The notes under the pieces were generated by a model that had not been told where the DNA came from, did no database searches, and saw only the letters and a list, made by a program, of their open reading frames with translations. Below, piece by piece: positions 2,161 to 22,649 of a stretch of DNA of 32,000 bases (positions are counted from its first letter, which is position 1; every line of letters begins with the position of its first letter). The translations under genes and the position numbers were made by a program. This stretch comes from an uncultured bacterium (GTDB lineage Bacteria > Patescibacteriota > Gracilibacteria > UBA1369 > PNNO01): NCBI GenBank assembly GCA_963704705.1, contig OY969931.1, positions 1,020,001 through 1,052,000 on the forward strand, written 5' to 3'.

Positions 2161-2843
2161 AAGTTGTCTGTTTGCTGGTTATAAACACGTGATGAAAATG
2201 TTGTTTGCAAATCAAGATTAAAATCCGAAACCGTATCATTGTTGGATCCAATACTCGAATACACAGTAACCGATGGCTGAAACTGTACTACGCCACACGA
2301 AATATTATCAGGATCAAATGGATCATCCAAAGGTGCTTTATCAAAACTAAATGATTTAATTTTTAAATCCTTCATTTCAATCTCTACAAATCCTGTTTCA
2401 AATCCTCTGTCAGGTTTCCATTTATCATCAGCTGTACCTTTTATTTCTTTTTTAAAACTTAATATTTTTCCATCGTTATCTTCGGAATCCTGAACTAGAA
2501 ATACAGTTCGTTCAGTTGCATCGCGATTGATTAATGCCAAATAAGAATCTGGTGAACCCAACTGAAGTTCGTTACTATTGCATGTATCAGATTGCGAACT
2601 GCCACTTCCGGGCTTACCAGGACATCCATAATCAATTGTTTTTGATCTTGTTTCTTCACCTATTAAACTGTAAACATATCTCAATTGCGAATACATTTCT
2701 CTTATAACATTTGCATTTCTTTGTGCACCTGCAATATTTAGATACGAACTTGAAATAGTAATCATTAATAATGAAAAAATAGTAATTGCAATGAGTATTT
2801 CTATTAATGTGAATCCCCTGTTTGTTCTAATTTTATGAGTCAA
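2157..2843 (-). CDS. prepilin-type N-terminal cleavage/methylation domain protein (pseudopilin)
   Basis: N-terminus MTHKIRTNRGFTLIEILIAITIFSLLM carries the canonical G/FTLIE class III signal followed by a hydrophobic helix. Confidence 0.78.
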   Translation of the reverse strand: MTHKIRTNRGFTLIEILIAITIFSLLMITISSSYLNIAGAQRNANVIREMYSQLRYVYSLIGEETRSKTIDYGCPGKPGSGSSQSDTCNSNELQLGSPDSYLALINRDATERTVFLVQDSEDNDGKILSFKKEIKGTADDKWKPDRGFETGFVEIEMKDLKIKSFSFDKAPLDDPFDPDNISCGVVQFQPSVTVYSSIGSNNDTVSDFNLDLQTTFSSRVYNQQTDNL

Positions 2844-2870
2844 AAGTCAAAGGTTAATGGTCAAATGTTG

Positions 2871-3497
2871 CTATAAAGGTCCGGCTTTCCAGTCGGTTAA
2901 AATTGTAGGAAGCCTGAATTCGCCTGTTTTACTTCCTTCAGTCCACTGCACAACAGCTGTTACTGAAAGTTTTAATTTATCTTTTCCTTCTTTGTTAGAT
3001 AAATCATACGGTACTGATCTTACTTCAAGCCATCTTCTGAATTTACTTTTATTTTCAGTTGGTTCATGAATATATTTAACGGGATCTCCGCTTGTTAAAT
3101 AAAGCTGGCTTTTCTCCTGTGTGTAATTCAGCAGTTCCCATGGAGCCGCATTCTTTACATCAGCAGGATCATTGCTGCATGTATCGGTAGTTTGTAAATT
3201 TTCACGTTTTTCAATAATAAAATTACCATCACCTTCAAAACTTACTCCAAATAAATTCTTATCACTACCTCTCCAGTATTGGTTATGCATCCAAAGTCCA
3301 TCTCGTATATTTCTAAAACCTTCAAGAGCTTCCTGTGCCAGATTATAAGCAATTATTTTATCGATATTACTATTGTTGGCTCTAATTGATGACACCAATA
3401 AATTAGTTGTTGTTACAATAACAATTACAATAATTGCAATTGATACAATTACTTCAGGTAAAGTGAACCCTTTTTGTTTTTTATTTATATTTTTCAT
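2871..3497 (-). CDS. prepilin-type N-terminal cleavage/methylation domain protein (pseudopilin)
   Basis: N-terminus MKNINKKQKGFTLPEVIVSIAIIVIVIV has a G/FTLPE motif followed by a hydrophobic helix. Confidence 0.78.
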   Translation of the reverse strand: MKNINKKQKGFTLPEVIVSIAIIVIVIVTTTNLLVSSIRANNSNIDKIIAYNLAQEALEGFRNIRDGLWMHNQYWRGSDKNLFGVSFEGDGNFIIEKRENLQTTDTCSNDPADVKNAAPWELLNYTQEKSQLYLTSGDPVKYIHEPTENKSKFRRWLEVRSVPYDLSNKEGKDKLKLSVTAVVQWTEGSKTGEFRLPTILTDWKAGPL

Positions 3498-3634
3498 TAA
3501 ATCTATCAGTAAAAGTATTACCGGTTAACATATTTAATAAGATAACTCTTTGGTCATTTTCATTTACATCCCCTTTCAATCCAATTACAATCTGCAAAAA
3601 TTTATTTGAGCCAGCCATAGCACCTATTTCCAAT

Positions 3635-4066
3635 TCAGGAATGGCATTTGGCGGAGCAAAAGAACATAGTAAAATCATCATTTTCATTACCAAAAAGTTT
3701 AATATCATTTACAACTATATTCTTATCAAGATCATTTACTCCATACGATTCAGCATCTATTTGTAAACATTTGTTATTTTTTTCTTTTAAACGATTATAT
3801 GGTGCAATCAGCTGATCGATTGTTCCTTCCACTTTTACAACAAACCCAAAACAATGAGATTCATTGTCTACCGAATAACCTGATCTGGTTTTTTCACGCA
3901 TCTCAATAATCAAATTTTCAATTTTATTTGCAGCAATATCAAGAGCTATTCTTTTATTTACACTTGAATAACTCATTATGGTTACAGCAATTATCACTGA
4001 AATGATTGCCATCACTATTAGAAGTTCAATAAGGGTAAAACCTTTTTTTTTATTTTTAATTTTCAT
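3635..4066 (-). CDS. prepilin-type protein (GspH/FimT-like minor pilin), apparently truncated by a +1 frameshift; the tail continues in ORF 3481..3708
   Basis: MKIKNKKKGFTLIELLIVMAIISVIIAV. I prefer the ATG at 4066 over the track start at 4099, because 4066 sits just after the pilC stop (4077-4079) and gives a normal short leader peptide. See the frameshift finding. Confidence 0.65.
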   Translation of the reverse strand: MKIKNKKKGFTLIELLIVMAIISVIIAVTIMSYSSVNKRIALDIAANKIENLIIEMREKTRSGYSVDNESHCFGFVVKVEGTIDQLIAPYNRLKEKNNKCLQIDAESYGVNDLDKNIVVNDIKLFGNENDDFTMFFCSAKCHS

Positions 4067-5289: not shown

Positions 5290-5832
5290 TTATAAGTAAT
5301 AAGCTTTAATAGTTAAAGTCATGTTTTCAAGAAGGCTTTGAAGTCTTTGAACATTAATGTTTTCAACAACAAATTTTCTGCTTGTACTCTCAAGATCTTG
5401 CAAAAATGAAATTAAAGCCTGATGTCCGCCACTTATATTTGTTGAAATATTTAATACATTTACACCAAGTTCAGAATCTTCAAGTTGTCCAAAACTTATT
5501 GAATTCAAACTTACTGAATTGTCCGTAGTTAATTTTGCAAGTGTGTTAATTACTTCGCTTTCATTAACATCGGCAGGAATTAAGTTAAGAACATCATTCA
5601 TTGTTACTTCTGAACCTGAAAAAGAATCACGCAGATTTTCAAGTCTCACGATTTCTGCCTTAATTTGTTGTAATTCACTCTGCTTTGAAGACAAATCTGT
5701 CTGAAGATCAGCAAGTCTGTCTTTTTGCGGTAAAAGAAATACAAACACTCCGACTATTGATACAATTAATAATGTAACAGCAACAATTGTCGATGTATTT
5801 GAATCCTGATTTGTTTTTATTTGAGCATTCAT
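5290..5832 (-). CDS. PilO-like bitopic pilus biogenesis protein
   Basis: 180 aa with one N-terminal TM helix (IVAVTLLIVSIVGVFVFLL) followed by a coiled-coil (DRLADLQTDLSSKQSELQQIKAEIVRLE). It sits directly upstream of pilC. Assignment rests on architecture and context only. Confidence 0.45.
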   Translation of the reverse strand: MNAQIKTNQDSNTSTIVAVTLLIVSIVGVFVFLLPQKDRLADLQTDLSSKQSELQQIKAEIVRLENLRDSFSGSEVTMNDVLNLIPADVNESEVINTLAKLTTDNSVSLNSISFGQLEDSELGVNVLNISTNISGGHQALISFLQDLESTSRKFVVENINVQRLQSLLENMTLTIKAYYL

Positions 5833-5850
5833 TATTATTTTTAAGTTAAA

Positions 5851-6405
5851 TTATCTACGTGGAACGTTATCTTCAGAAGCTTTGTAATTCACACTTAGTA
5901 TAAAAGACAAAGTCGAATCCCCTTCAGCTGTCTGCGCCTTGCTTATTGAAGGTACAAAAGGGTTTGAAAAATCCGGAGCTTCACTGAAAACTTTAAGTGT
6001 GTCAGCTACATAACCCAGAAGGGTTTGCACGTTTTCTGAATTTAAAGTCTGAACATTAAATGAAAGTCTGCCATCTTTTCCTCCGCTGTACGAAAGAAAA
6101 TCAACAATTTTCCTTTTTTCTTCAATATCAACCGGAGCTATTTTAGTAATAGTATCCAATACTTTGGACCATTTTACTTCAATAAGCTCAATTTTATCCA
6201 AAGCGCTTATGCTTTTTTGAGCAAGCACGACATCGCTCTGATTAAGCTCATCCAAACTGTTATTGGCTTTTGTTATATCCTGATCAGCTTTATTTATCTC
6301 TGATTCGGCAGCTAGTGCCTGCGAATAGAAATAACCTGAGCCAAGCCCCACTCCAAAAAGGATAATAAAGGCAATGATTAAAAATACTGGTGATTTTTTA
6401 TTCAT
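5851..6405 (-). CDS. PilN/PilO-like bitopic pilus biogenesis protein
   Basis: 184 aa with an N-terminal TM helix (VFLIIAFIILFGVGLGSGYFY) followed by a coiled-coil. It is the first gene of the minus-strand pilus operon. Assignment rests on architecture and context only. Confidence 0.4.
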   Translation of the reverse strand: MNKKSPVFLIIAFIILFGVGLGSGYFYSQALAAESEINKADQDITKANNSLDELNQSDVVLAQKSISALDKIELIEVKWSKVLDTITKIAPVDIEEKRKIVDFLSYSGGKDGRLSFNVQTLNSENVQTLLGYVADTLKVFSEAPDFSNPFVPSISKAQTAEGDSTLSFILSVNYKASEDNVPRR

Positions 6406-11975: not shown

Positions 11976-12439
11976 GCTGATTAAGGGCTTTTTGTGGTCG
12001 CCTGTCACATTATAAGTGATGGGAGGAAAGTCCGAACACCAAAGGAATAGGTAGCTGGTAACACCAGCCGGCTCTCTCAGTAATGAAAGAGCAAGGGAAA
12101 GTGCCACAGAGACAATACTACTAGAGGCCTTTGGCCTCTGGGAAAGGTGAAAAGTCCCCCGAGACGAGCGTATGCGAGTCTCTAGCGAGCTAAACTTATA
12201 GCGAGCCAAGTGTGAGCGTAAGCGAACTCAAATAAGGGGGAAGTCTCCCTCAAGTAATTGTGGGAAACTCGGTAAACCCTACCAGGTGCAAGGTGGTTGG
12301 CATGCAGGAATTAAGCTATATTCCTTTAGCTCCATGTTTTGCCCACTGCGAAGAACCGCATTGTAAAATGTCGGTCAAGATAGATGATCACGCCATAAAA
12401 GGTAACAAAATTCGGCTTATTGAAAAGCCTTTAATCAGC
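11976..12439 (+). ncRNA. rnpB: RNase P RNA (bacterial type A-like), unusually long at ~464 nt
   Basis: Universal CR-I GGGAGGAAAGTCCGAACACC lies at 12021-12040. AGTGCCACAGAGA and GGTAAACCCTACC...GCAAGG are present, and CR-V ACAAAATTCGGCTTAT lies at 12405-12420. P4 forms between aag(t)ccgaa (12028-12036, with the classic bulged U) and ttcggctt (12411-12418). P1 is 17 bp between 11976-11992 and 12423-12439, with one G-U that only works on the plus strand. The region is G+C-rich relative to its flanks. Confidence 0.9.
12161..12227 (+). repeat. G+C-rich repeat copy A (GCGAGC-unit element) inserted in an RNase P RNA hairpin
   Basis: gagacgagcgtatgcgagtctctagcgagctaaacttatagcgagccaagtgtgagcgtaagcgaac is flanked by ccccc (12156-12160) and ggggg (12236-12240). 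It is about 85% identical to the reverse complement of 13966-14012. Confidence 0.7.
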
Positions 12440-13904: not shown

Positions 13905-13940
13905 AATATACAATTGACCATTGACTTACTAAATGTATTC

Positions 13941-14012
13941 GTTCGCCAAGGCGAACTCATGCTACGCTCGCGATATGTTTACGCTCGCGAGAGACTCACT
14001 AACGCTCGTCTC
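13941..14012 (-). repeat. G+C-rich repeat copy B, inverted relative to copy A, ending 2 nt before the secA ATG
   Basis: On the plus strand: gttcgccaaggcgaactcatgctacgctcgcgatatgtttacgctcgcgagagactcactaacgctcgtctc. It contains three CGCTCG units, a direct repeat of tacgctcgcga (17 nt period) and a 7-bp hairpin gttcgcc/ggcgaac. Confidence 0.7.
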
Positions 14013-14014
14013 TA

Positions 14015-16714
14015 ATGTTACAAAAAATAATTAATCGTATAATTGGCGATCAAAATAAGAAAGCCATTAAGAAAATTCAACCACTTGTTGATGAAATTAA
14101 TAAATTTGATGCAAAATATTCAGAAGAATTAAAAAATGATGAAGACTTTGTAGCAAAAACAAATGAATTTAAACACAGACTCGCAAATGGTGAGACTGAA
14201 GATCAAATTTTACCCGAAGCTTTTGCTTTGGTTAAGGCTGCATGTCGAAAATTACTTGGAAGAAAATGGGAAGTTCGCGGAAATGAAATAACATGGGATA
14301 TGGTTCCGTATGATGTTCAGTTAATAGGAGGAGTTGTTTTACATCAGGGAAATATCGCTGAAATGAAAACAGGTGAAGGTAAAACACTTGTTTGTACTAT
14401 GCCGGTTTATTTAAATGCTTTAAGCGGCAAAGGAGTATTTGTTGTGACAGTAAATGATTATCTGGCTTCACGTGATGCTGAATGGATGAGCGGTGTTTAT
14501 AGTTTTCTTGGTTTATCAGTTGGAATAATAAGACACGGACAGAGTCCTGAAGAAAAAAAACAAGCATATGAATCTGATATTACTTATGGAACAAACAATG
14601 AATTTGGATTTGATTATCTTAGGGATAATATGGCTACAAATATTGATAATGTTGTTCAAAAATATTTAAATTATGCGATTGTAGATGAAGTTGATTCGAT
14701 TTTAATTGATGAAGCCAGAACTCCTTTGATTATTTCAGCTCCGGCAGAAGAATCAACATTAAAATATAAAAGATATTCTGATTTAGTCGGAAGATTAAAA
14801 GAAAATGAAGACTATAATATAGATGAAAAGGCCAGATCTGCAGCATTAACAGAAGATGGAATTAAAAAGATGGAAAATCTTTTGGGTGTTGAAAATATTT
14901 ATACCGAAGCTGGATTTTTAGAGGTTCATCATATTGAATCAGCATTAAAAGCACAGACAATCTTTAAAAAAGATATCGATTATGTTGTTAGAGATGGCGA
15001 AGTAGTTATTGTTGATGAGTTTACAGGTCGTTTAATGCCCGGCAGACGCTATTCGCAGGGGCTGCATCAGGCAATCGAAGCAAAAGAAGGTGTTGAGATT
15101 AAAAGAGAATCTAAAACAATGGCAACAATTACATTCCAAAACTATTTCAGATTATTTAATAAATTGGGAGGAATGACCGGTACAGCTGAAACTGAAGCAG
15201 AAGAATTTTATAAAATTTACGGCTTGGATACTATTGTTATTCCAACTCATAAAAAAGTAATAAGAGATGATAAACCTGATGCGATTTATAAAACTCAAAA
15301 AGCAAAATATGTTGCTGTGGCAGAAAAAACAAAGGAACTTCATCAAAATGGTCAGCCTGTTTTAATTGGTACAATTTCAATTGAGAAATCAGAGGTAATG
15401 AGTAAGCTGCTTAAAATGCAAGGTGTGCCCCATAGTGTTTTAAATGCTAAATTCCATGAAAAAGAAGCTGAAATAATTAAAGACGCAGGTCAGGAAAAAG
15501 CTGTTACAATTGCAACCAACATGGCAGGTCGCGGAACCGATATTAAACTCGGGAAAGGTGTAGCTGATCTTGGAGGATTATATGTTATTGGAACTGAAAG
15601 GCATGAATCAAGACGTATCGATAATCAGCTCAGAGGTCGTTCAGGACGTCAGGGTGATGATGGTGCTACGCAATTTTATGTTTCAACCGAAGATGATCTA
15701 ATGCGTTTATTTGGAGGTGAAAGAGTACAAAGGATGATGGATATTTTGAAAGTACCTGATGATATGCCAATAGAAAACGGCATGATTTCAAAATCTATTG
15801 AAAGCGCACAGAAAAAAGTTGAAGGCAGAAACTTTGATATAAGAAAACATCTCGTTGAATATGATGATGTGATTAATCACCACAGAACAATTGTTTATAA
15901 AAAACGCAGAGAAGTATTAGAAAGTGAAAACATTAAAAACGATATTATTCTTCTTTTGGAAAAAGAAATTGAAAAAGTTGTTTTAATGCATACACAAGGC
16001 GAAGCTAAAGATTGGGATTACAAAGAAATAGTTGAAACTGTTAGAACTTTTAACAGAAATAGAAGTAAAGAATTTAATATTGATGATATTACAGGAATTA
16101 CAAATGTTGAAGATATGATTAAGAGACTTAGAAGATATTTATTTGATGAATATGAAGAACTTGAAAAATCGATTCCTAATCCTGAATTATTAAGAAAGAT
16201 TGAAAGAAGTGTTTATCTTCATATTATAGATTTATTCTGGATGGAGCATATTTCAAATCTAAATGCTATTAGAGAAAATGTAGCTTTAAGTGGCTATAGC
16301 CAGAGAGATCCTCTAAATGAATATAAGGGGGAAGCATTTACTGCATTTGAAAAAATGATGAATGATGTAGAAAGTGCGACAGTAAATACTTTATTTAAAA
16401 TTGATATTAGAAGTCAGGTTCCTGTACAAGTAATTCAGTCTGATCAGCCAAGAAATATTCAAACAAATGAAGGCCAAATAAACGAACCACTTTCAGGTCA
16501 CGAAGGTGGCAGATCAAACATTATAAAAACTATGGCTGGTGCCGGAGCAAATAAGAAGGGTATACAAATGATAAATACTGAAGAATCAAATCCCGCATTT
16601 GCAGCACAGCCAATGGCTGCTCAAACTGTGGATCCAAAATTTCAGGGAGTGGGCAGAAACGACCCATGCCCTTGCGGAAGCGGTAAAAAATTCAAAAAAT
16701 GCCATGGTGCTTAA
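14015..16714 (+). CDS. secA: preprotein translocase ATPase SecA
   Basis: 899 aa with DEAD-motor motifs ([42 protein letters not shown]) and the C-terminal zinc finger [14 protein letters not shown]. Confidence 0.95.
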
Positions 16715-18069: not shown

Positions 18070-20331
18070 TTAATCTAAATAAATTTCACGAGGTTTCGCG
18101 CCGTTTGATGGACCAATTACTCCGTTCTCCTCAAGTTCATCCAATAAACGTGCTGCTCTGGCATATCCTACTTTAAGACGTCTTTGTAACAAAGATGCTG
18201 AAGCTTTTCTGTTCTCCTGAATCACTTCAATCGCCTGCTTGTACATTTCATCGTCTGAATCTCCAAAATTACTGTCAGGCACACCGTTTAATTTTTGTCC
18301 TGCAACTTTTGCTGAAATAATTTCATTATCATATTCAGGTTCAATTGTTAATTTAACTCTGTTTGTAACTGCTTCAATTTCAGCTGATGAAATATAAATT
18401 CCCTGAACTCTGAGCGGTTTATTCATACCGCTAGGTAAATAGAGCATGTCTCCTTTTCCAAGAAGATCTTCTGCACCAACTCCATCTAAAATTGTTCGTG
18501 AATCAATAGAAGAACTTACAGCAAATGAAATTCTCGCTGGAATGTTTGCTTTAATTAAACCTGTGATTACATCAACAGAAGGTCTTTGAGTTGCTATTAC
18601 CAAATGTATTCCAACTGCTCGTGCCATTTGTGCGATTCTGCAAATTGATGCTTCAACTTCTTTTCCGGCTGCCATCATCAAATCAGCCAACTCATCAATC
18701 ACCACAACTATTGTACTCATTTTATCTTCAATTGCAGGGTCAGCATTATAATCGGTTATGTTACGTTTTCCTTTATCAGCACAATCCGTATAACGTCTGT
18801 TCATTTCAGCTACACACCATCTTAAAGCTATTGCTGCTTTTTCAGGGTCATTAATTACCGGAGTTAATAAATGAGGAATTGAATTGTAAGCTTTAAGTTC
18901 AACCTGTTTTGGATCGATTAATATCATTTTTAAATCAAGCGGTGAGTTCTGATACAAAAGTGAAATCAATAAAGTATTCATTCCAACTGATTTACCACTG
19001 CCGGTTGCACCTGCAATAAGCAAATGCGGCATACTTTTTAAATCCGCAATAATAGGCTGACCTGAAACATTGCGTCCAAGAGGGAATTTTAAATTTGAAT
19101 CGCCTTTTTTAAATTCAGGTGATTCAATAATTTCTCTAAGTTTAACCATTGACCGATGTTCATTCGGAACCTCAATTCCAACCAAAGCCTGGCCAGGAAT
19201 TGGTGCTTCTATACGAACAGAAGGCGCTGCCAATGCAAGTGCCAAATCATTCTTTAATGAAGTAATTTTAGAAAGCTTAACTCCTTCATGAGGCTTTAAA
19301 GTATATTGAATTACAGTAGGACCCACATGCACTTCATGCATTGTTACATCAATGCCAAACTGCTCAAGTTTTGTTCTGATTTTTTCAGCATTTTTCATTA
19401 ACACATCATCATCTGATTCAATTTCAGTTACTCCACCTTCAAGCAAATCGAGCGAAGGAAATTCCCAATCAGCATAATCCTGTTCTTTTTCTTTTCCTGC
19501 ATCTTCTGCAATTTCTTCTTCTTTAGCTGCATTTTTAATTTGCACTTTTTTCTTCTCTGATTCTTCTTCTAAATATTTATCTTCATCTTCATTAACTTCA
19601 GTAACCGGTTGAGCTCTTTTAATTCTAATTTCTGATTCACGGCCTCCGTAAATAGCCTTTAATACATCATCATTAGCAAGTTCAACATTGTCAGAACTGA
19701 TTTCACGTTCGTTTTTACTTCTTTTTTCCGCTGGTTTCTTCTCAATTTTAATTTCAGGTTTAAAGAATCTTGCTAATTCACCCAATGATATTTCAAATGT
19801 TAATAAAATTGAAATAAGCGCTACTCCAACAAAAATTACAGCTGAACCAACATTCCCTATACTCAACATTTCACGCATAAAAAAGTTGGTTACAAAACCA
19901 ACATAACCTCCATACTGACCCTGTTGCGCAACAGTCAGCACATTTTCAATAGGAACAGCCAGATGCACAATGCTTAATATTGAAAGTACCATTAAAACAA
20001 CTCCTACTGTTCTGGATAAGCCGAAAGTCACATTTCGCGCAAAGAAAAGCATTAAAGTTATAAGTAAAAATAGCGGTGGAATCATATAAATCCCCCAACC
20101 TAAAATCGGCTGCAATAATCCTACCCATATTTCACCAACAATACCAAATGATCCCTGAATACTTAAAAATGTTACAGCTGCGAATATAAAGTATATAACC
20201 GCTGTAATATCTCTTGCTACTGATGATTTTACCTCAAATTTCAGATTACTGCCCGAATTTCTTTTACGTTTGCTTGATTTAGCTGATTTTGATGTTCTTG
20301 AAGATTTTTTAACTTTTCTTGTTCTAGGCAT
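18070..20331 (-). CDS. ftsK: DNA translocase FtsK/SpoIIIE
   Basis: Basic N-terminus, 4-5 TM helices and an acidic linker. Motor domain with Walker A GATGSGKSVGMN and Walker B VVVIDELADLMM. C-terminal winged-helix gamma domain (ASASLLQRRLKVGYARAARLLDELEENGVIGP). Confidence 0.92.
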   Translation of the reverse strand: MPRTRKVKKSSRTSKSAKSSKRKRNSGSNLKFEVKSSVARDITAVIYFIFAAVTFLSIQGSFGIVGEIWVGLLQPILGWGIYMIPPLFLLITLMLFFARNVTFGLSRTVGVVLMVLSILSIVHLAVPIENVLTVAQQGQYGGYVGFVTNFFMREMLSIGNVGSAVIFVGVALISILLTFEISLGELARFFKPEIKIEKKPAEKRSKNEREISSDNVELANDDVLKAIYGGRESEIRIKRAQPVTEVNEDEDKYLEEESEKKKVQIKNAAKEEEIAEDAGKEKEQDYADWEFPSLDLLEGGVTEIESDDDVLMKNAEKIRTKLEQFGIDVTMHEVHVGPTVIQYTLKPHEGVKLSKITSLKNDLALALAAPSVRIEAPIPGQALVGIEVPNEHRSMVKLREIIESPEFKKGDSNLKFPLGRNVSGQPIIADLKSMPHLLIAGATGSGKSVGMNTLLISLLYQNSPLDLKMILIDPKQVELKAYNSIPHLLTPVINDPEKAAIALRWCVAEMNRRYTDCADKGKRNITDYNADPAIEDKMSTIVVVIDELADLMMAAGKEVEASICRIAQMARAVGIHLVIATQRPSVDVITGLIKANIPARISFAVSSSIDSRTILDGVGAEDLLGKGDMLYLPSGMNKPLRVQGIYISSAEIEAVTNRVKLTIEPEYDNEIISAKVAGQKLNGVPDSNFGDSDDEMYKQAIEVIQENRKASASLLQRRLKVGYARAARLLDELEENGVIGPSNGAKPREIYLD

Positions 20332-20400
20332 GAATTGATTTATTAATACTGGATATAATTTTAAACATAAAACAGAGAAAATTGCAAGTTGATAACATAG

Positions 20401-20433
20401 AAAAATGGCCCAGGGTTCGCTACGTCCTGGGCC
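20401..20433 (-). terminator. intrinsic-terminator-like hairpin at the ftsK-proximal end of the G+C-rich block
   Basis: An 8-bp GC-rich stem ggcccagg (20407-20414) / cctgggcc (20426-20433) with an 11-nt loop. On the minus strand it is followed by ATTTTTCT (20406-20399). Confidence 0.5.
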
Positions 20434-20890
20434 GACTCTGAGAAGTCATCAATCTGCTGGACCCCTATTTTGTGGGCCTTTAACGCTAACATCCTTGGTG
20501 TGAGGAGATGCGCTTTTATATCCAGCAAATCTTCCTTTCTCAGAGCACCCTGTTCGGTACTAACAACTAGCATTGTCCTTGCAACGACACACATTTTTTT
20601 ACGCTTTTTTTCGGCGAGCAGTCATGCCAGCCACACAAGAAGGGAGGCTAACTTCAGGGGGCACATGCATTTCACCTGTTTCGCCGCATTCCAGGAGCGG
20701 AAGCAGGAAACACCCCTGGTGAGTGTGGGGTCGGACACTCAGACCGGCTACTCCAGGTCTTCTTGCTCATACCGGAAGATGAACAACAGGGGGAAAGTCT
20801 GCGTTCATCAACGGTTCCACAAGCAGCTCAAACCTTTTTGCGTAATTTGGTTGGGATCGTTCGAAGGACGTTGCTGTTCCTAGTCGCTAA
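20401..20890 (-). ncRNA. unclassified G+C-rich structured-RNA candidate (strand tentative)
   Basis: About 51% G+C by hand count against AT-rich surroundings, with no credible ORF. It has several nested perfect 6-10 bp helices and a terminator-like 3' end on the minus strand. I recognise no family. Details are in the findings. Confidence 0.4.
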
Positions 20891-21062
20891 GAAATTACTT
20901 AATCTATGAACAGGGATTTCAAACATTCTCACATAAATAGAAATACAATCGAAAACATCGATATATCAACTATATTAAAGTGGTAATGGATTTTATAATT
21001 AAATCCGATTCAAAGTCAATTGGATTTCTGCTATTATTACACGCGAATTAATCTTTATAAAA

Positions 21063-22649
21063 ATGATTCGAACACGTTTTGCACCATCACCAACAGGATA
21101 TCTGCATGTAGGAGGCCTCCGAACCGCTTTGTACAGCTATTTATTGGCTAAAAAAAATAACGGTCAATTCATATTAAGAATAGAAGATACAGACCAAAAA
21201 CGTGAAGTTGAGGGTGCAACAGCTCATTTAATTGAAATGCTTGAATGGGCTGGATTGAATCCGGATGAAGGTCCAAGTAAAGGTGGCCCTTTTAAGCCAT
21301 ATATTCAATCGCAAAGGACTGAAATATATAAAAAATATGCAGAAGAATTATTGGAAAAAGGCCATGCTTATAGATGTTTTTGCACAGCTGAAAGACTTAC
21401 AGAAATGCGCGAACAACAGGAAAAAGCCAAAAAAGCACCAATGTACGACAGACATTGTCTTTATTTAAGTGATGAAGAAATCCAAAAAAATCTGGATGAA
21501 GGAAAACCCTTTGTTGTACGCCAAAAAATTCCATTAGAAAAACTGGTTAAATTTAAAGATTTGGTTCGCGGAAACGTAACTTTTGCAGCAAAAACACTTG
21601 ATGATCAGGTTTTATTAAAATCTGACGGATTTCCTACCTATCAACTTGCTAATGTAATTGATGATCATTTGATGGAAATAACTCATGTTATAAGAGGCGA
21701 AGAATGGCTTCCATCAACACCAAAACACATACTTTTATATGAAGCTTTAAAATGGAATCCACCTGAATTTGCGCACATTCCCCTGCTTTTAAACAAAGAT
21801 CGCAGCAAATTAAGTAAGCGTCAGGGCGATGTTTCTGTTGAAGATTATATTAATAAAGGTTATTTAAAAGAAGCTATCATTAATTTTATTGCATTTTTGG
21901 GGTGGCATCCGGGAGGAGACAGTGAAACTGAAATTTTCAACCTTGAAGAACTGGTTGAACACTTCAGTTTAGAAAAAGTTCATAAAGCCGGAGCTATTTT
22001 TGACCTTGAAAAACTTGATTGGTTCAATTGGCAATGGAAACGAAGAATTTTCCATGACGATTTACATGAATTTGCAAAAAAACTCGACCAGAAAGTTGAA
22101 ATTCACAGTCCTAAAAAAGGAGAATTTATTTATAATTTTTCTGATAAGAAAATTGCACATGAATTCTTTTTACACAGAACAGATGAGCTTAAAAAAATGT
22201 GCTTTAATTCGCTTGCAGATGCCTATAAACAAGAAGACGAAAAACTACGTAAAGCACTTGTAACAGTTGAAGAAAAAGTTCTCAGAGATCATAAAAATAT
22301 AAATGAGTATATTAAATTTTATTTTGAAGATATTGATTACGGAGTTGAACTTTTGACTCATGAAAAAATGAAGGTGGATTTTGAAACAGCGAGTACTTCC
22401 CTATCTAAAATTTTGGAGAAATTTGAAAATTTTGATGATTTTGATGACGAAGAAAAAATAAAAGAACTTTTAATAGGTGTTGTTGAAGAAACAGGGCTAA
22501 AAAACGGTCAAATATTTTGGCCATTGCGTTCAGCTTTAACAGGTGAACAGTTCTCTCCTGGTGTTTTTGAAGTTGCATGGGTTATAGGAAAAGATTTATG
22601 TTTGGAGCGCATTAAAAAAGCGTTAGAAAAGCTTGAAAAAGCATCTTAG
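21063..22649 (+). CDS. gltX: glutamate--tRNA ligase
   Basis: IRTRFAPSPTGYLHVGGLRTALYSY (HIGH region) and KLSKRQG (KMSKS-type). A zinc-binding-like CFC...C segment is present. Length is 528 aa. Confidence 0.93.
   Translation: MIRTRFAPSPTGYLHVGGLRTALYSYLLAKKNNGQFILRIEDTDQKREVEGATAHLIEMLEWAGLNPDEGPSKGGPFKPYIQSQRTEIYKKYAEELLEKGHAYRCFCTAERLTEMREQQEKAKKAPMYDRHCLYLSDEEIQKNLDEGKPFVVRQKIPLEKLVKFKDLVRGNVTFAAKTLDDQVLLKSDGFPTYQLANVIDDHLMEITHVIRGEEWLPSTPKHILLYEALKWNPPEFAHIPLLLNKDRSKLSKRQGDVSVEDYINKGYLKEAIINFIAFLGWHPGGDSETEIFNLEELVEHFSLEKVHKAGAIFDLEKLDWFNWQWKRRIFHDDLHEFAKKLDQKVEIHSPKKGEFIYNFSDKKIAHEFFLHRTDELKKMCFNSLADAYKQEDEKLRKALVTVEEKVLRDHKNINEYIKFYFEDIDYGVELLTHEKMKVDFETASTSLSKILEKFENFDDFDDEEKIKELLIGVVEETGLKNGQIFWPLRSALTGEQFSPGVFEVAWVIGKDLCLERIKKALEKLEKAS

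Follow-up and report, generated by a model that had tools for sequence, protein, structure and literature searches.

A 32,000-nucleotide (nt) stretch of DNA from an uncultured bacterium (GenBank assembly GCA_963704705.1, contig OY969931.1, positions 1,020,001 to 1,052,000; hereafter the window, in whose numbering positions are given) carries, between the divergent genes ftsK and gltX, a G+C-rich block that a first-pass annotation had interpreted as an independent, structured non-coding RNA (ncRNA) encoded on the minus strand and belonging to a class it could not name. Exact recounting of 20401-20880 gave 244 G+C in 480 positions (50.8%), in agreement with the previous figure of about 51%; the whole window has 33.4% G+C, and the flanks of the block have 22% (20332-20400) and 26% (20881-21062). 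When the window was scanned in 150-nt segments for G+C of at least 0.46, just two sustained islands emerged: 20376-20900, and 11976-12375, which is the RNase P RNA of class A (166 bits in Rfam, matching 11984-12435), already named as one of the other G+C islands. The earlier calls of ftsK, of gltX and of two mutually antisense open reading frames (ORFs) in the block, 137 amino acids (aa) on the plus strand and 77 aa on the minus strand, likewise correspond to the ORF list. Homologues, a predicted fold, a promoter and terminator, and the empty outcome of Rfam and protein searches together uphold the earlier proposal. We consider it likely that the block is the body of a stand-alone minus-strand ncRNA gene, accessory in nature and acting other than in cis, and very likely that a real structured RNA gene exists on this strand, its transcription being predicted from sequence. 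As to the extent first proposed (20396-20895, about 0.5 kb), the block itself held but the right end did not: the conserved RNA reaches further, to about 585 nt, because the 5' strand of its helix P1 lies at 20908-20915 and its predicted start near 20984 (Table 1).

Relatives were found through homologues of GltX, which affiliates the organism with Peregrinibacteria-like bacteria of the Candidate Phyla Radiation (CPR), and through the metagenomic contigs carrying those homologues. No record of the window's own GltX was found. Among species-representative genomes the nearest was L001 (70% GltX identity), in which the order epimerase-ftsK-gltX is the same and the ftsK-gltX gap measures just 140 nt, so that the block is absent there. 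Homologues of the block were retrieved by nhmmer from L081 (GltX identity 95%; E-value 1e-158), L082/L083 (87%; 1e-47) and L093 (82%; 4e-42), and in these relatives, where the first-pass annotation had proposed to look, the helices it listed are kept through compensatory changes. The L081 sequence is 92% identical across 605 nt that include the gltX-side flank, and 94.6% identical in the RNA alignment; its contig ends within the RNA, with homology as far as the contig reaches. Those of L082/L083 and L093 are homologous along the full length of the RNA. The contigs derive from SRR27885931 (L081), JGI 3300009320 and 3300009314 (L082/L083) and ERZ24794656 (L093). Beyond the far end of the RNA in L093 lies a convergent gene of 1329 aa in place of ftsK, so that the RNA stays with gltX, whose promoter adjoins it.

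Conservation of the block exceeds that of its neighbour. Between the window and L081 the RNA is identical at a fraction of 0.95, versus 0.66 for four-fold degenerate sites of gltX; between L082 and L093 the corresponding values are 0.87 and 0.52. The same RNA identities (95% and 87%) also surpass those of gltX overall at the nucleotide level (91.5% and 80%), which makes the RNA better conserved than the adjoining gene. Across the longer distance from the window to L082 the RNA retains 62% identity overall, distributed as islands of up to 20 invariant nt between variable stretches, and single-nucleotide insertions or deletions interrupt the conserved islands, so that no reading frame is kept. 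This is the pattern to be expected of a structured RNA and not of a gene or of neutral DNA, and the comparisons demonstrate, at the level of sequence, purifying selection on the predicted RNA.

The full 585-nt unit folds on the minus strand with a minimum free energy (MFE) of -201.7 kcal/mol (z = -6.9), and the minus strand of 20396-20900 with z = -5.3, none of 100 shuffled sequences matching the native folding energy. From four homologous sequences we obtained a consensus of 86 pairs, in which standard pairs occupy 97% of pair positions, whereas sliding the partners by one to three columns left just 36-49%. As an indication of covariation, double (compensatory) changes occur at 16 pairs, compared with 0-5 in the slid controls, and the observed values were reached by 0 of 500 shuffles.

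Two long-range helices organize the 5' part of the predicted structure. P1, whose 5' strand sits within the invariant 20-mer GAAAUCCCUGUUCAUAGAUU, forms eight pairs in all four sequences with a single U-A to U-G change, and closes a 5' domain of about 370 nt. P2 consists of six plus six base pairs flanking an invariant 2x2 internal loop (CG/GC); its 12 pairs are 100% standard and include three compensatory double changes (G-C to U-A, U-A to C-G and C-G to U-A). P1, P2 and the 3' domain each arise in separate minimum-energy folds of the window and L093. Within the 5' domain, the central conserved arm has 19 predicted pairs, almost all invariant and several of them G-U, together with invariant unpaired UUGUGU and CU; it holds the 19-mer TCTTGTGTGGCTGGCATGA, identical in all four sequences. 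The two other arms are variable. In the first, the basal helix is retained with one compensatory change, while the hairpin above it (20778-20784/20803-20809) is lineage-specific, L093 having another hairpin in its stead and L082 a deletion. In the second, the hairpin 20721-20726/20735-20740 is specific to the window and absent in L082 and L093. Both of these hairpins had been predicted at first pass, and both stand for the window, though not as features shared among the homologues. A similar qualification applies to the A-rich tract 20594-20612, which had been thought to split the block into two domains: it is an A-rich linker in L082 and L093 also, its sequence not being conserved, but the domain boundary falls elsewhere, at about 20546-20548. 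The 5' leader that precedes P1 is variable in length, being about 33 nt longer in the window than in L082 and L093.

The 3' domain shows changed sequence within an unchanged architecture, which is identical in separate folds of the window, L082 and L093. Its three-way junction carries two hairpins, GCGCAUC...GUUAGCG and CCCR-CAAAAU-YGGG. Its outer helix, misaligned by MAFFT and so compared through the separate folds of each sequence, is built from a different sequence in each case (CUCUGAGAA:UUCUCAGAG, UUUCUUGAG:CUUAGGGAG and UUUCUUAAG:CUUGAGAAG) and covaries fully. The helices 20436-20445/20536-20545, 20455-20461/20521-20527 and 20492-20495/20503-20506, which the first reading had paired by hand, all occur in the MFE fold and are kept with other sequences in L082 and L093.

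Signals for initiation and termination delimit the predicted transcript. The putative RNA promoter is the best promoter-like site found by a scan of the region, at the TTGACT (21019-21014) previously suspected as a minus-strand promoter, with the -10 element now read as TAAAAT after 18 nt, and would place the transcription start at an A near 20984. Equivalents occur in L093 (TTGACT-18-TAGAAT), in L090 (TTGACA-17-TAAAGT), a further lineage discussed below, and in L082; the 13 nt that follow the -10 element, CCATTACCACTTT, are invariant in the alignment of the window, L082 and L093. At the opposite end of the predicted unit, the G+C stem 20407-20414/20426-20433 with its U-tract, proposed earlier as a terminator, is present and ends about 75 nt ahead of the ftsK start; our scan tool failed to flag it solely because its loop of 11 nt exceeds the tool's 8-nt limit. 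Its geometry is kept in L082, L093 and L090, each with a G+C hairpin of other sequence and a U-run in the same place. The RNA promoter stands back to back with that of gltX. The ftsK promoter, also recognized at first pass (TTGCAA at 20387), is among the best-scoring sites of the scan and is kept in every relative, including the block-free L086, L142 and L001. The attributes of a stand-alone ncRNA gene are therefore found on both counts: an own promoter and intrinsic terminator conserved in homologues, and compensatory changes with purifying selection, the latter on four sequences.

Orientation, left unsettled by the first-pass annotation with a preference for minus, can be regarded as settled in favour of the minus strand from the predicted promoter, the predicted terminator, wobble asymmetry and modelled single-sequence energies. 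For the window block the two strands fold at -180 (minus) versus -165 kcal/mol (plus), with z of -5.3 versus -2.1; the corresponding z values are -5.1 and -3.5 in L093, -3.2 and -1.4 in L090, -5.2 and -2.5 in L085, and -5.7 and -3.0 in L089. In every lineage tested the minus-strand folds are stronger by 15-30 kcal/mol, and G-U pairs that are invariant in the shared helices would turn into A-C mismatches if the plus strand were the RNA.

Table 1. Features of the ftsK-gltX region, in window coordinates
Feature	Positions	Strand	Basis or remark
ftsK	18070-20331	minus	ORF list
ftsK promoter, TTGCAA-18-TAAAAT; neighbour, outside the RNA	20358-20387	minus	promoter scan
Predicted RNA gene, ~585 nt	20401-20984	minus	promoter and terminator positions, full-length fold, homology
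Intrinsic terminator (predicted): GGCCCAGG, 11-nt loop, CCUGGGCC, then A and UUUUU	20401-20433	minus	sequence
3' domain: outer helix 20536-20545/20436-20445, intermediate helix, three-way junction 20455-20527	20436-20545	minus	folds
P1 3' strand, GAACAGGG	20548-20555	minus	consensus and single-sequence folds
P2 3' strand, GUCGUUGCAAGGAC	20575-20588	minus	consensus fold
A-rich single-stranded linker within 5' domain	20594-20612	minus	unpaired in all folds
Central conserved arm, GGUGA...GUGCCCCCUGAAG...CUUCUUGUGUGGCUGGCAUGA...UCGCC	20613-20676	minus	alignment, consensus fold
Second variable arm: helix 20754-20757/20715-20718 around hairpin 20721-20726/20735-20740	20715-20757	minus	folds
First variable arm: basal helix 20819-20823/20762-20766 and hairpin 20778-20784/20803-20809	20762-20823	minus	consensus fold
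P2 5' strand, GUCCUUCGAACGAU	20856-20869	minus	pairs with 20575-20588
P1 5' strand, CCCUGUUC	20908-20915	minus	pairs with GAACAGGG, 20548-20555
5' leader, A+T-rich, with local hairpin	20921-20984	minus	alignment, fold
RNA promoter, sigma-70-like: TTGACT (21019-21014), 18-nt spacer, TAAAAT (20995-20990)	20990-21019	minus	10/12 match
gltX promoter, TTCAAA-17-TATTAT with TG; neighbour, outside the RNA	21009-21037	plus	conserved region in all relatives
gltX	21063-22649	plus	ORF list

Searches for a known RNA, protein or mobile element returned nothing to which the block could be assigned. At gathering thresholds, Rfam 15 identified in the window only the RNase P RNA (11984-12435); at E <= 10, the interval 20250-21100 gave three sub-threshold chance matches to eukaryotic families, so that the earlier inability to name a class proved well founded; and at E <= 1 nothing relevant was found in L082, L085, L089, L090, L093 or L141. 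The models covered included OLE, ROOL, GOLLD, HEARO, raiA, tmRNA, 6S, signal recognition particle (SRP) RNA, T-box, riboswitches, group I and II introns and self-cleaving ribozymes. ARAGORN found no tRNA or tmRNA in the window or in nine related loci. Seven ORFs of the block had no Pfam match, the 137-aa ORF had no homologue among 5.8 billion proteins, and the concatenated six-frame open stretches, used as a substitute for blastx, gave no match at E <= 1; the pseudogene check raised at first pass thus came back empty in six frames. Nor was any reading frame conserved among the window, L082 and L093. In blastn searches of phage and plasmid collections the block and its L141 and L090 counterparts were unmatched. 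The ends of the block carry no inverted or direct repeats beyond 10-nt chance matches and no flanking duplication, and no second copy occurs in the 32-kb window or in 2.3 Mb of related loci; with neither terminal repeats, target duplication nor extra copies in that material, a miniature inverted-repeat transposable element (MITE), an insertion sequence (IS)-derived element and a REP-type element were rejected. No adjacent nuclease, reverse-transcriptase or transposase gene was seen at the window or related loci. A dif/IMEX or oriC function, suggested by ftsK and by a local change of G/C-skew sign, was examined by eye only, and rejected: no convincing dif site or DnaA-box cluster was apparent, and the skew follows gene orientation. 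A literature search for structured RNAs of this sort in CPR bacteria or Peregrinibacteria found none, and to our knowledge no large structured RNA of this type has been described from the CPR.

The position between gltX and its neighbour proved to be a variable slot when surveyed in twelve lineages with GltX identity of at least 70%. RNA of the window type occupies it in four (the window, L081, L082/L083 and L093); four others (L090, L141, L085 and L089) have different G+C-rich inserts in the same frame; and the remaining four (L086-88, L142, L001 and L091) have no insert, with gaps of 222-252 nt in L086-88 and 179 nt in L142; the L086/L087 lineage is represented by GCA_964346325.1. The insert of L090 is 611 nt long (z = -3.2) with a called terminator, that of L085 307 nt (z = -5.2), that of L089 182 nt with 63% G+C (z = -5.7), and that of L141 about 715 nt (3131-3845, minus; z = -12.5, -293 kcal/mol). 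The L141 insert (73% GltX identity) contains several near-perfect hairpins of 20-25 bp and is far more extreme than the window RNA; in its modelled fold it resembles a stack of palindromic elements more than an ordinary ncRNA. By blastn, nhmmer and a profile of the four homologues, none of these four inserts could be aligned with the window RNA. L090 and the window type nevertheless share GAAAU(U/C)CCU and the 12-mer TCGAACGATCCC, spaced 56 versus 58 nt apart, and these motifs are the 5' strands of P1 and P2. The inserts of L141 (about 3258-3310, minus) and L089 (about 400-435, minus) have in common a hairpin GUCCCCC...GGGGGACAUUAUU, with an exact match of 13 nt versus about 0.5 shared 9-mers expected by chance, which hints at modular relationships among cassettes.

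Distribution of the RNA does not follow the relationships seen in pta, ackA and gltX. Grouping by pta and ackA places the window, L082 and L086 together, and L093 with L090; the most similar RNAs are nevertheless those of L082 and L093, L086 has none, and that of L090 is almost unalignable. This distribution would have arisen either through repeated loss combined with episodes of rapid change, or through lineages exchanging RNA alleles. Several further observations were made at the slot. Small ORFs occur in L082 (167 aa; 3374-3877, minus), L004 (74 aa; 5684-5908, minus), L002 (187 aa; 5361-5924, minus) and L141 (115 aa; 2729-3076, plus), none of which is matched in Pfam or PADLOC; that of L082 lies between the gltX promoter and the RNA promoter and is preceded by a promoter of its own. 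Three metagenome contigs (L081, L084 and L247, each at position 1) break off in the slot or at a distance of 66-225 nt from it, L081 starting in the 3' domain of the RNA; a locus polymorphic within populations, at which assemblies break, would have this effect. The 13-mer AAATCCATTACCA (20980-20992, minus), which covers the last part of the -10 element and the initial bases transcribed from the predicted start, is also present in the empty slot of L086 (about 3904-3916, plus), reversed and directed toward gltX; it could be a chance match or have been left behind by a small inversion or excision.

These observations permit a broader and rather doubtful reading, in which the slot divergent from gltX would be an RNA-only hypervariable locus: closely related Peregrinibacteria-like lineages with 70-95% GltX identity would place different large and strongly folded minus-strand RNAs of 180-715 nt, rich in G+C, in one promoter/terminator frame, and some of these RNAs would be mosaic relatives (the 5' module common to the window type and L090, the hairpin common to L141 and L089). 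Each RNA type is under purifying selection wherever this could be measured, and the distribution of the slot RNAs cuts across pta, ackA and gltX relationships. Were this reading true, it would describe an exchangeable family of "ornate" RNAs under diversifying or frequency-dependent selection, driven for example by conflict with phages or with host cells, on which these episymbionts are thought to depend.

Several considerations weigh against a functional, stand-alone RNA gene. The four homologous sequences represent three independent lineages, and the covariation statistics are indicative and no formal test, because the structure was predicted on the same alignment; P1 and the central arm, being nearly invariant, are neutral on pairing. 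RNAalifold consensus energies are similar for the two strands (-66.1 minus, -64.8 plus) and do not separate them, so that the strand call rests on the promoter, the terminator, wobble asymmetry and single-sequence energies. Close relatives (L086-88, L142, L001 and L091) do without the RNA, which is thus dispensable, and the same picture would result had a passenger sequence been inserted. We identified no functional partner for the RNA. An invariant 19-mer searched against a collection of metagenome contigs gave three exact matches, and four viral scans with 15-16-mers gave 148, all of them chance matches around which nhmmer found no extended homology; the family must then be rare or be missing from the collections. 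The metagenome scan missed even the JGI contig of L082, and the collection is evidently without these organisms.

The passenger possibility merits the most serious attention among the alternatives. The block might be a mobile-element remnant, or G+C-richer foreign DNA captured in an insertion hot spot and devoid of RNA function: it is an insertion relative to L001, L086-88 and L142, unrelated G+C-rich sequences and small ORFs occupy the slot in other lineages, and the distribution departs from pta, ackA and gltX relationships. Yet conservation within each type lies far above that of synonymous sites, compensatory changes accompany a common fold recovered independently, promoter and terminator are the RNA's own and conserved, and the block has neither terminal inverted repeats, flanking duplication or second copy in 32 kb nor any six-frame protein, phage or plasmid match; we hold this explanation to be improbable. 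A cis-acting 5' leader of ftsK, as a riboswitch or attenuator whose terminator controls read-through, would account for the position of the block directly upstream on the same strand, with the hairpin ending shortly before the ftsK start. It would not account for the conserved ftsK promoter between terminator and gene, present in block-free relatives too, or for L093, whose RNA has neither ftsK nor any co-oriented gene downstream. No conserved alternative antiterminator pairing and no riboswitch or T-box model match was found, and 585 nt is well beyond the length of known leaders, all of which makes such a leader very unlikely.

Less credible again is a known RNA too divergent for current models, whether tmRNA, 6S, SRP RNA, a group I or II intron or a guide RNA of the omega/HEARO type. 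CPR RNAs are frequently divergent, and the L090 version starts with GGGGUUGACCAUCUGGCUCGAACG (GGGG...CUCGAAC), which we take to resemble the 5' end of tmRNA in E. coli and B. subtilis (ssrA); tmRNA was then rejected by ARAGORN and Rfam, ARAGORN being negative in the window and nine related loci, and the 3' part offers neither a T-arm nor an acceptor or CCA partner. No model of these families scores even at E <= 10, no nuclease, reverse-transcriptase or transposase gene adjoins, and absence from close relatives, at least at this locus, is unlike a housekeeping RNA. That the plus strand is the functional one, for instance as a long gltX leader, receives some encouragement from a linkage to gltX that persists in L093 despite a different gene on the other side, from the similar consensus energies, and from two wobble pairs of the first-pass annotation that work solely on that strand. 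But the hairpin and U-run read as a terminator on the minus strand alone, at the end distant from gltX; the gltX promoter intervenes between block and gene; and plus-strand folds are 15-30 kcal/mol weaker (z of -1.4 to -3.5), with A-C mismatches in the shared helices, so that we credit this arrangement less still. The slightest chance of all attaches to a small protein or peptide encoded by the block. Besides the 137-aa and 77-aa ORFs there is a plus-strand ORF at 20906-20986 (MNRDF...KW, 26 aa) that begins in the invariant 20-mer; it ends in the invariant region adjoining the -10 element of the RNA. Its length of 26, 17 and 5 codons in the window, L082 and L093, respectively, means that a conserved peptide is probably absent. 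No ORF has a Pfam or database homologue, and frames are not kept between the window and L082 or L093: an island that reads VMPATQEG in a 49-aa ORF of the window reads FMPATQEEG in a different ORF of L082, and the two diverge thereafter through 1-nt insertions or deletions.

Returning to a stand-alone minus-strand RNA, we propose the following course of events. Transcription would begin near 20984, at a sigma-70-type promoter arranged back to back with that of gltX, and the transcript of about 585 nt would fold into a 5' leader hairpin, then a multi-branched 5' domain of about 370 nt closed by the stacked long-range helices P1 and P2 and bearing two variable arms and one invariant arm, and next a 3' domain with its outer helix and three-way junction. 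Release at the intrinsic terminator would follow about 15 nt before the -35 element of the ftsK promoter is reached. Once folded, the RNA may work as a particle in trans; its contacts with a protein, with another RNA or within its own tertiary structure would be made by the three-way junction, the 2x2 loop of P2 and those nucleotides of the central arm that are invariant and unpaired. This scaffold or binding mode we offer tentatively, as one possibility. Judged from the compared loci, the predicted RNA is an accessory gene whose slot, bounded by the promoters of gltX and of the upstream neighbour, is variable.

Few large bacterial RNAs with intricate folds and no known function have so far been found, and every one of them has become the subject of close study. 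CPR genomes are tiny and have few non-coding genes. An RNA of about 585 nt kept under purifying selection in such a genome, with a strong promoter, is likely to have a specific role. In close relatives it is replaced by other folded RNAs or lost, which speaks for an accessory function of fast turnover and not for a housekeeping one. Screening for G+C islands, moreover, works in CPR genomes.

A second, smaller G+C-rich sequence in the window deserves mention. An element of about 75 nt inside the RNase P RNA gene (12155-12235, plus) recurs inverted at 13935-14015 (minus), with a mean column identity of 83%, repeated GCGAGC words and a GAGAC...GUCUC hairpin. The second copy is intergenic, upstream of an 899-aa gene at 14015 (secA by its L142 homologue). 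It could be a small mobile or duplicated hairpin that entered a peripheral part of RNase P RNA, and it is unrelated to the ftsK-gltX block.

Comparison with known systems places the predicted RNA near, but outside, several classes. Like the CsrB/RsmZ sponges it has its own promoter and terminator, many hairpins, poor conservation between lineages and a variable length. A sponge of the CsrB/Rsm type was nonetheless rejected on motif counts: the window RNA contains 9 GGA versus 9.0 expected, and GGA, AGGA and ANGGA stand at expectation in seven RNAs. With tmRNA (ssrA) it shares size, G+C richness, fast divergence outside a small conserved part and a variable locus, but it is without a tRNA-like domain (ARAGORN and Rfam negative, no T-arm or acceptor partner) and its 5' region pairs internally (P1, with 20548-20555) and not with the 3' end; no tag-peptide frame is conserved among the window, L082 and L093. 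The window's RNase P RNA is likewise a stand-alone structured RNA gene of the 450-585 nt range in a genome of 33% G+C; that RNA, however, is universal and is recognized at 166 bits, whereas the block is recognized by no model and close relatives lack it.

The OLE, ROOL, GOLLD and raiA-motif RNAs are several hundred nt long, with many helices, a conserved core and variable peripheral arms; they have more G+C than their genomes, and their neighbours give no obvious function. Self-assembly has been reported for ROOL, GOLLD and OLE. The block resembles them in its size, its conserved core with invariant unpaired nucleotides, its variable arms and its G+C richness. It differs in matching no Rfam model at E <= 10 and in its CPR (Peregrinibacteria-like) host, where a handful of lineages are known to carry it; unlike OLE it has no associated protein gene that we could see, and neither prophage nor tRNA context. 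Since the Rfam models of OLE, ROOL, GOLLD and raiA were tested and not matched, it is no member of these classes. The closest parallel in mode of discovery is the smtA motif ("Soda Lake RNA"), a candidate RNA of >350 nt from G+C-rich intergenic screening, confined to one narrow lineage, supported by covariation and judged too long for a riboswitch (PMC11109978). The block, too, was found as a long G+C-rich intergenic region and is large and narrowly distributed. It differs from the smtA motif in organism group and sequence, in having its own promoter and terminator, in lying divergent from its linked gene instead of upstream of it, and in the presence/absence polymorphism of its locus; we put it forward as a candidate for a new class of large bacterial ncRNA, with a narrow distribution as known so far.

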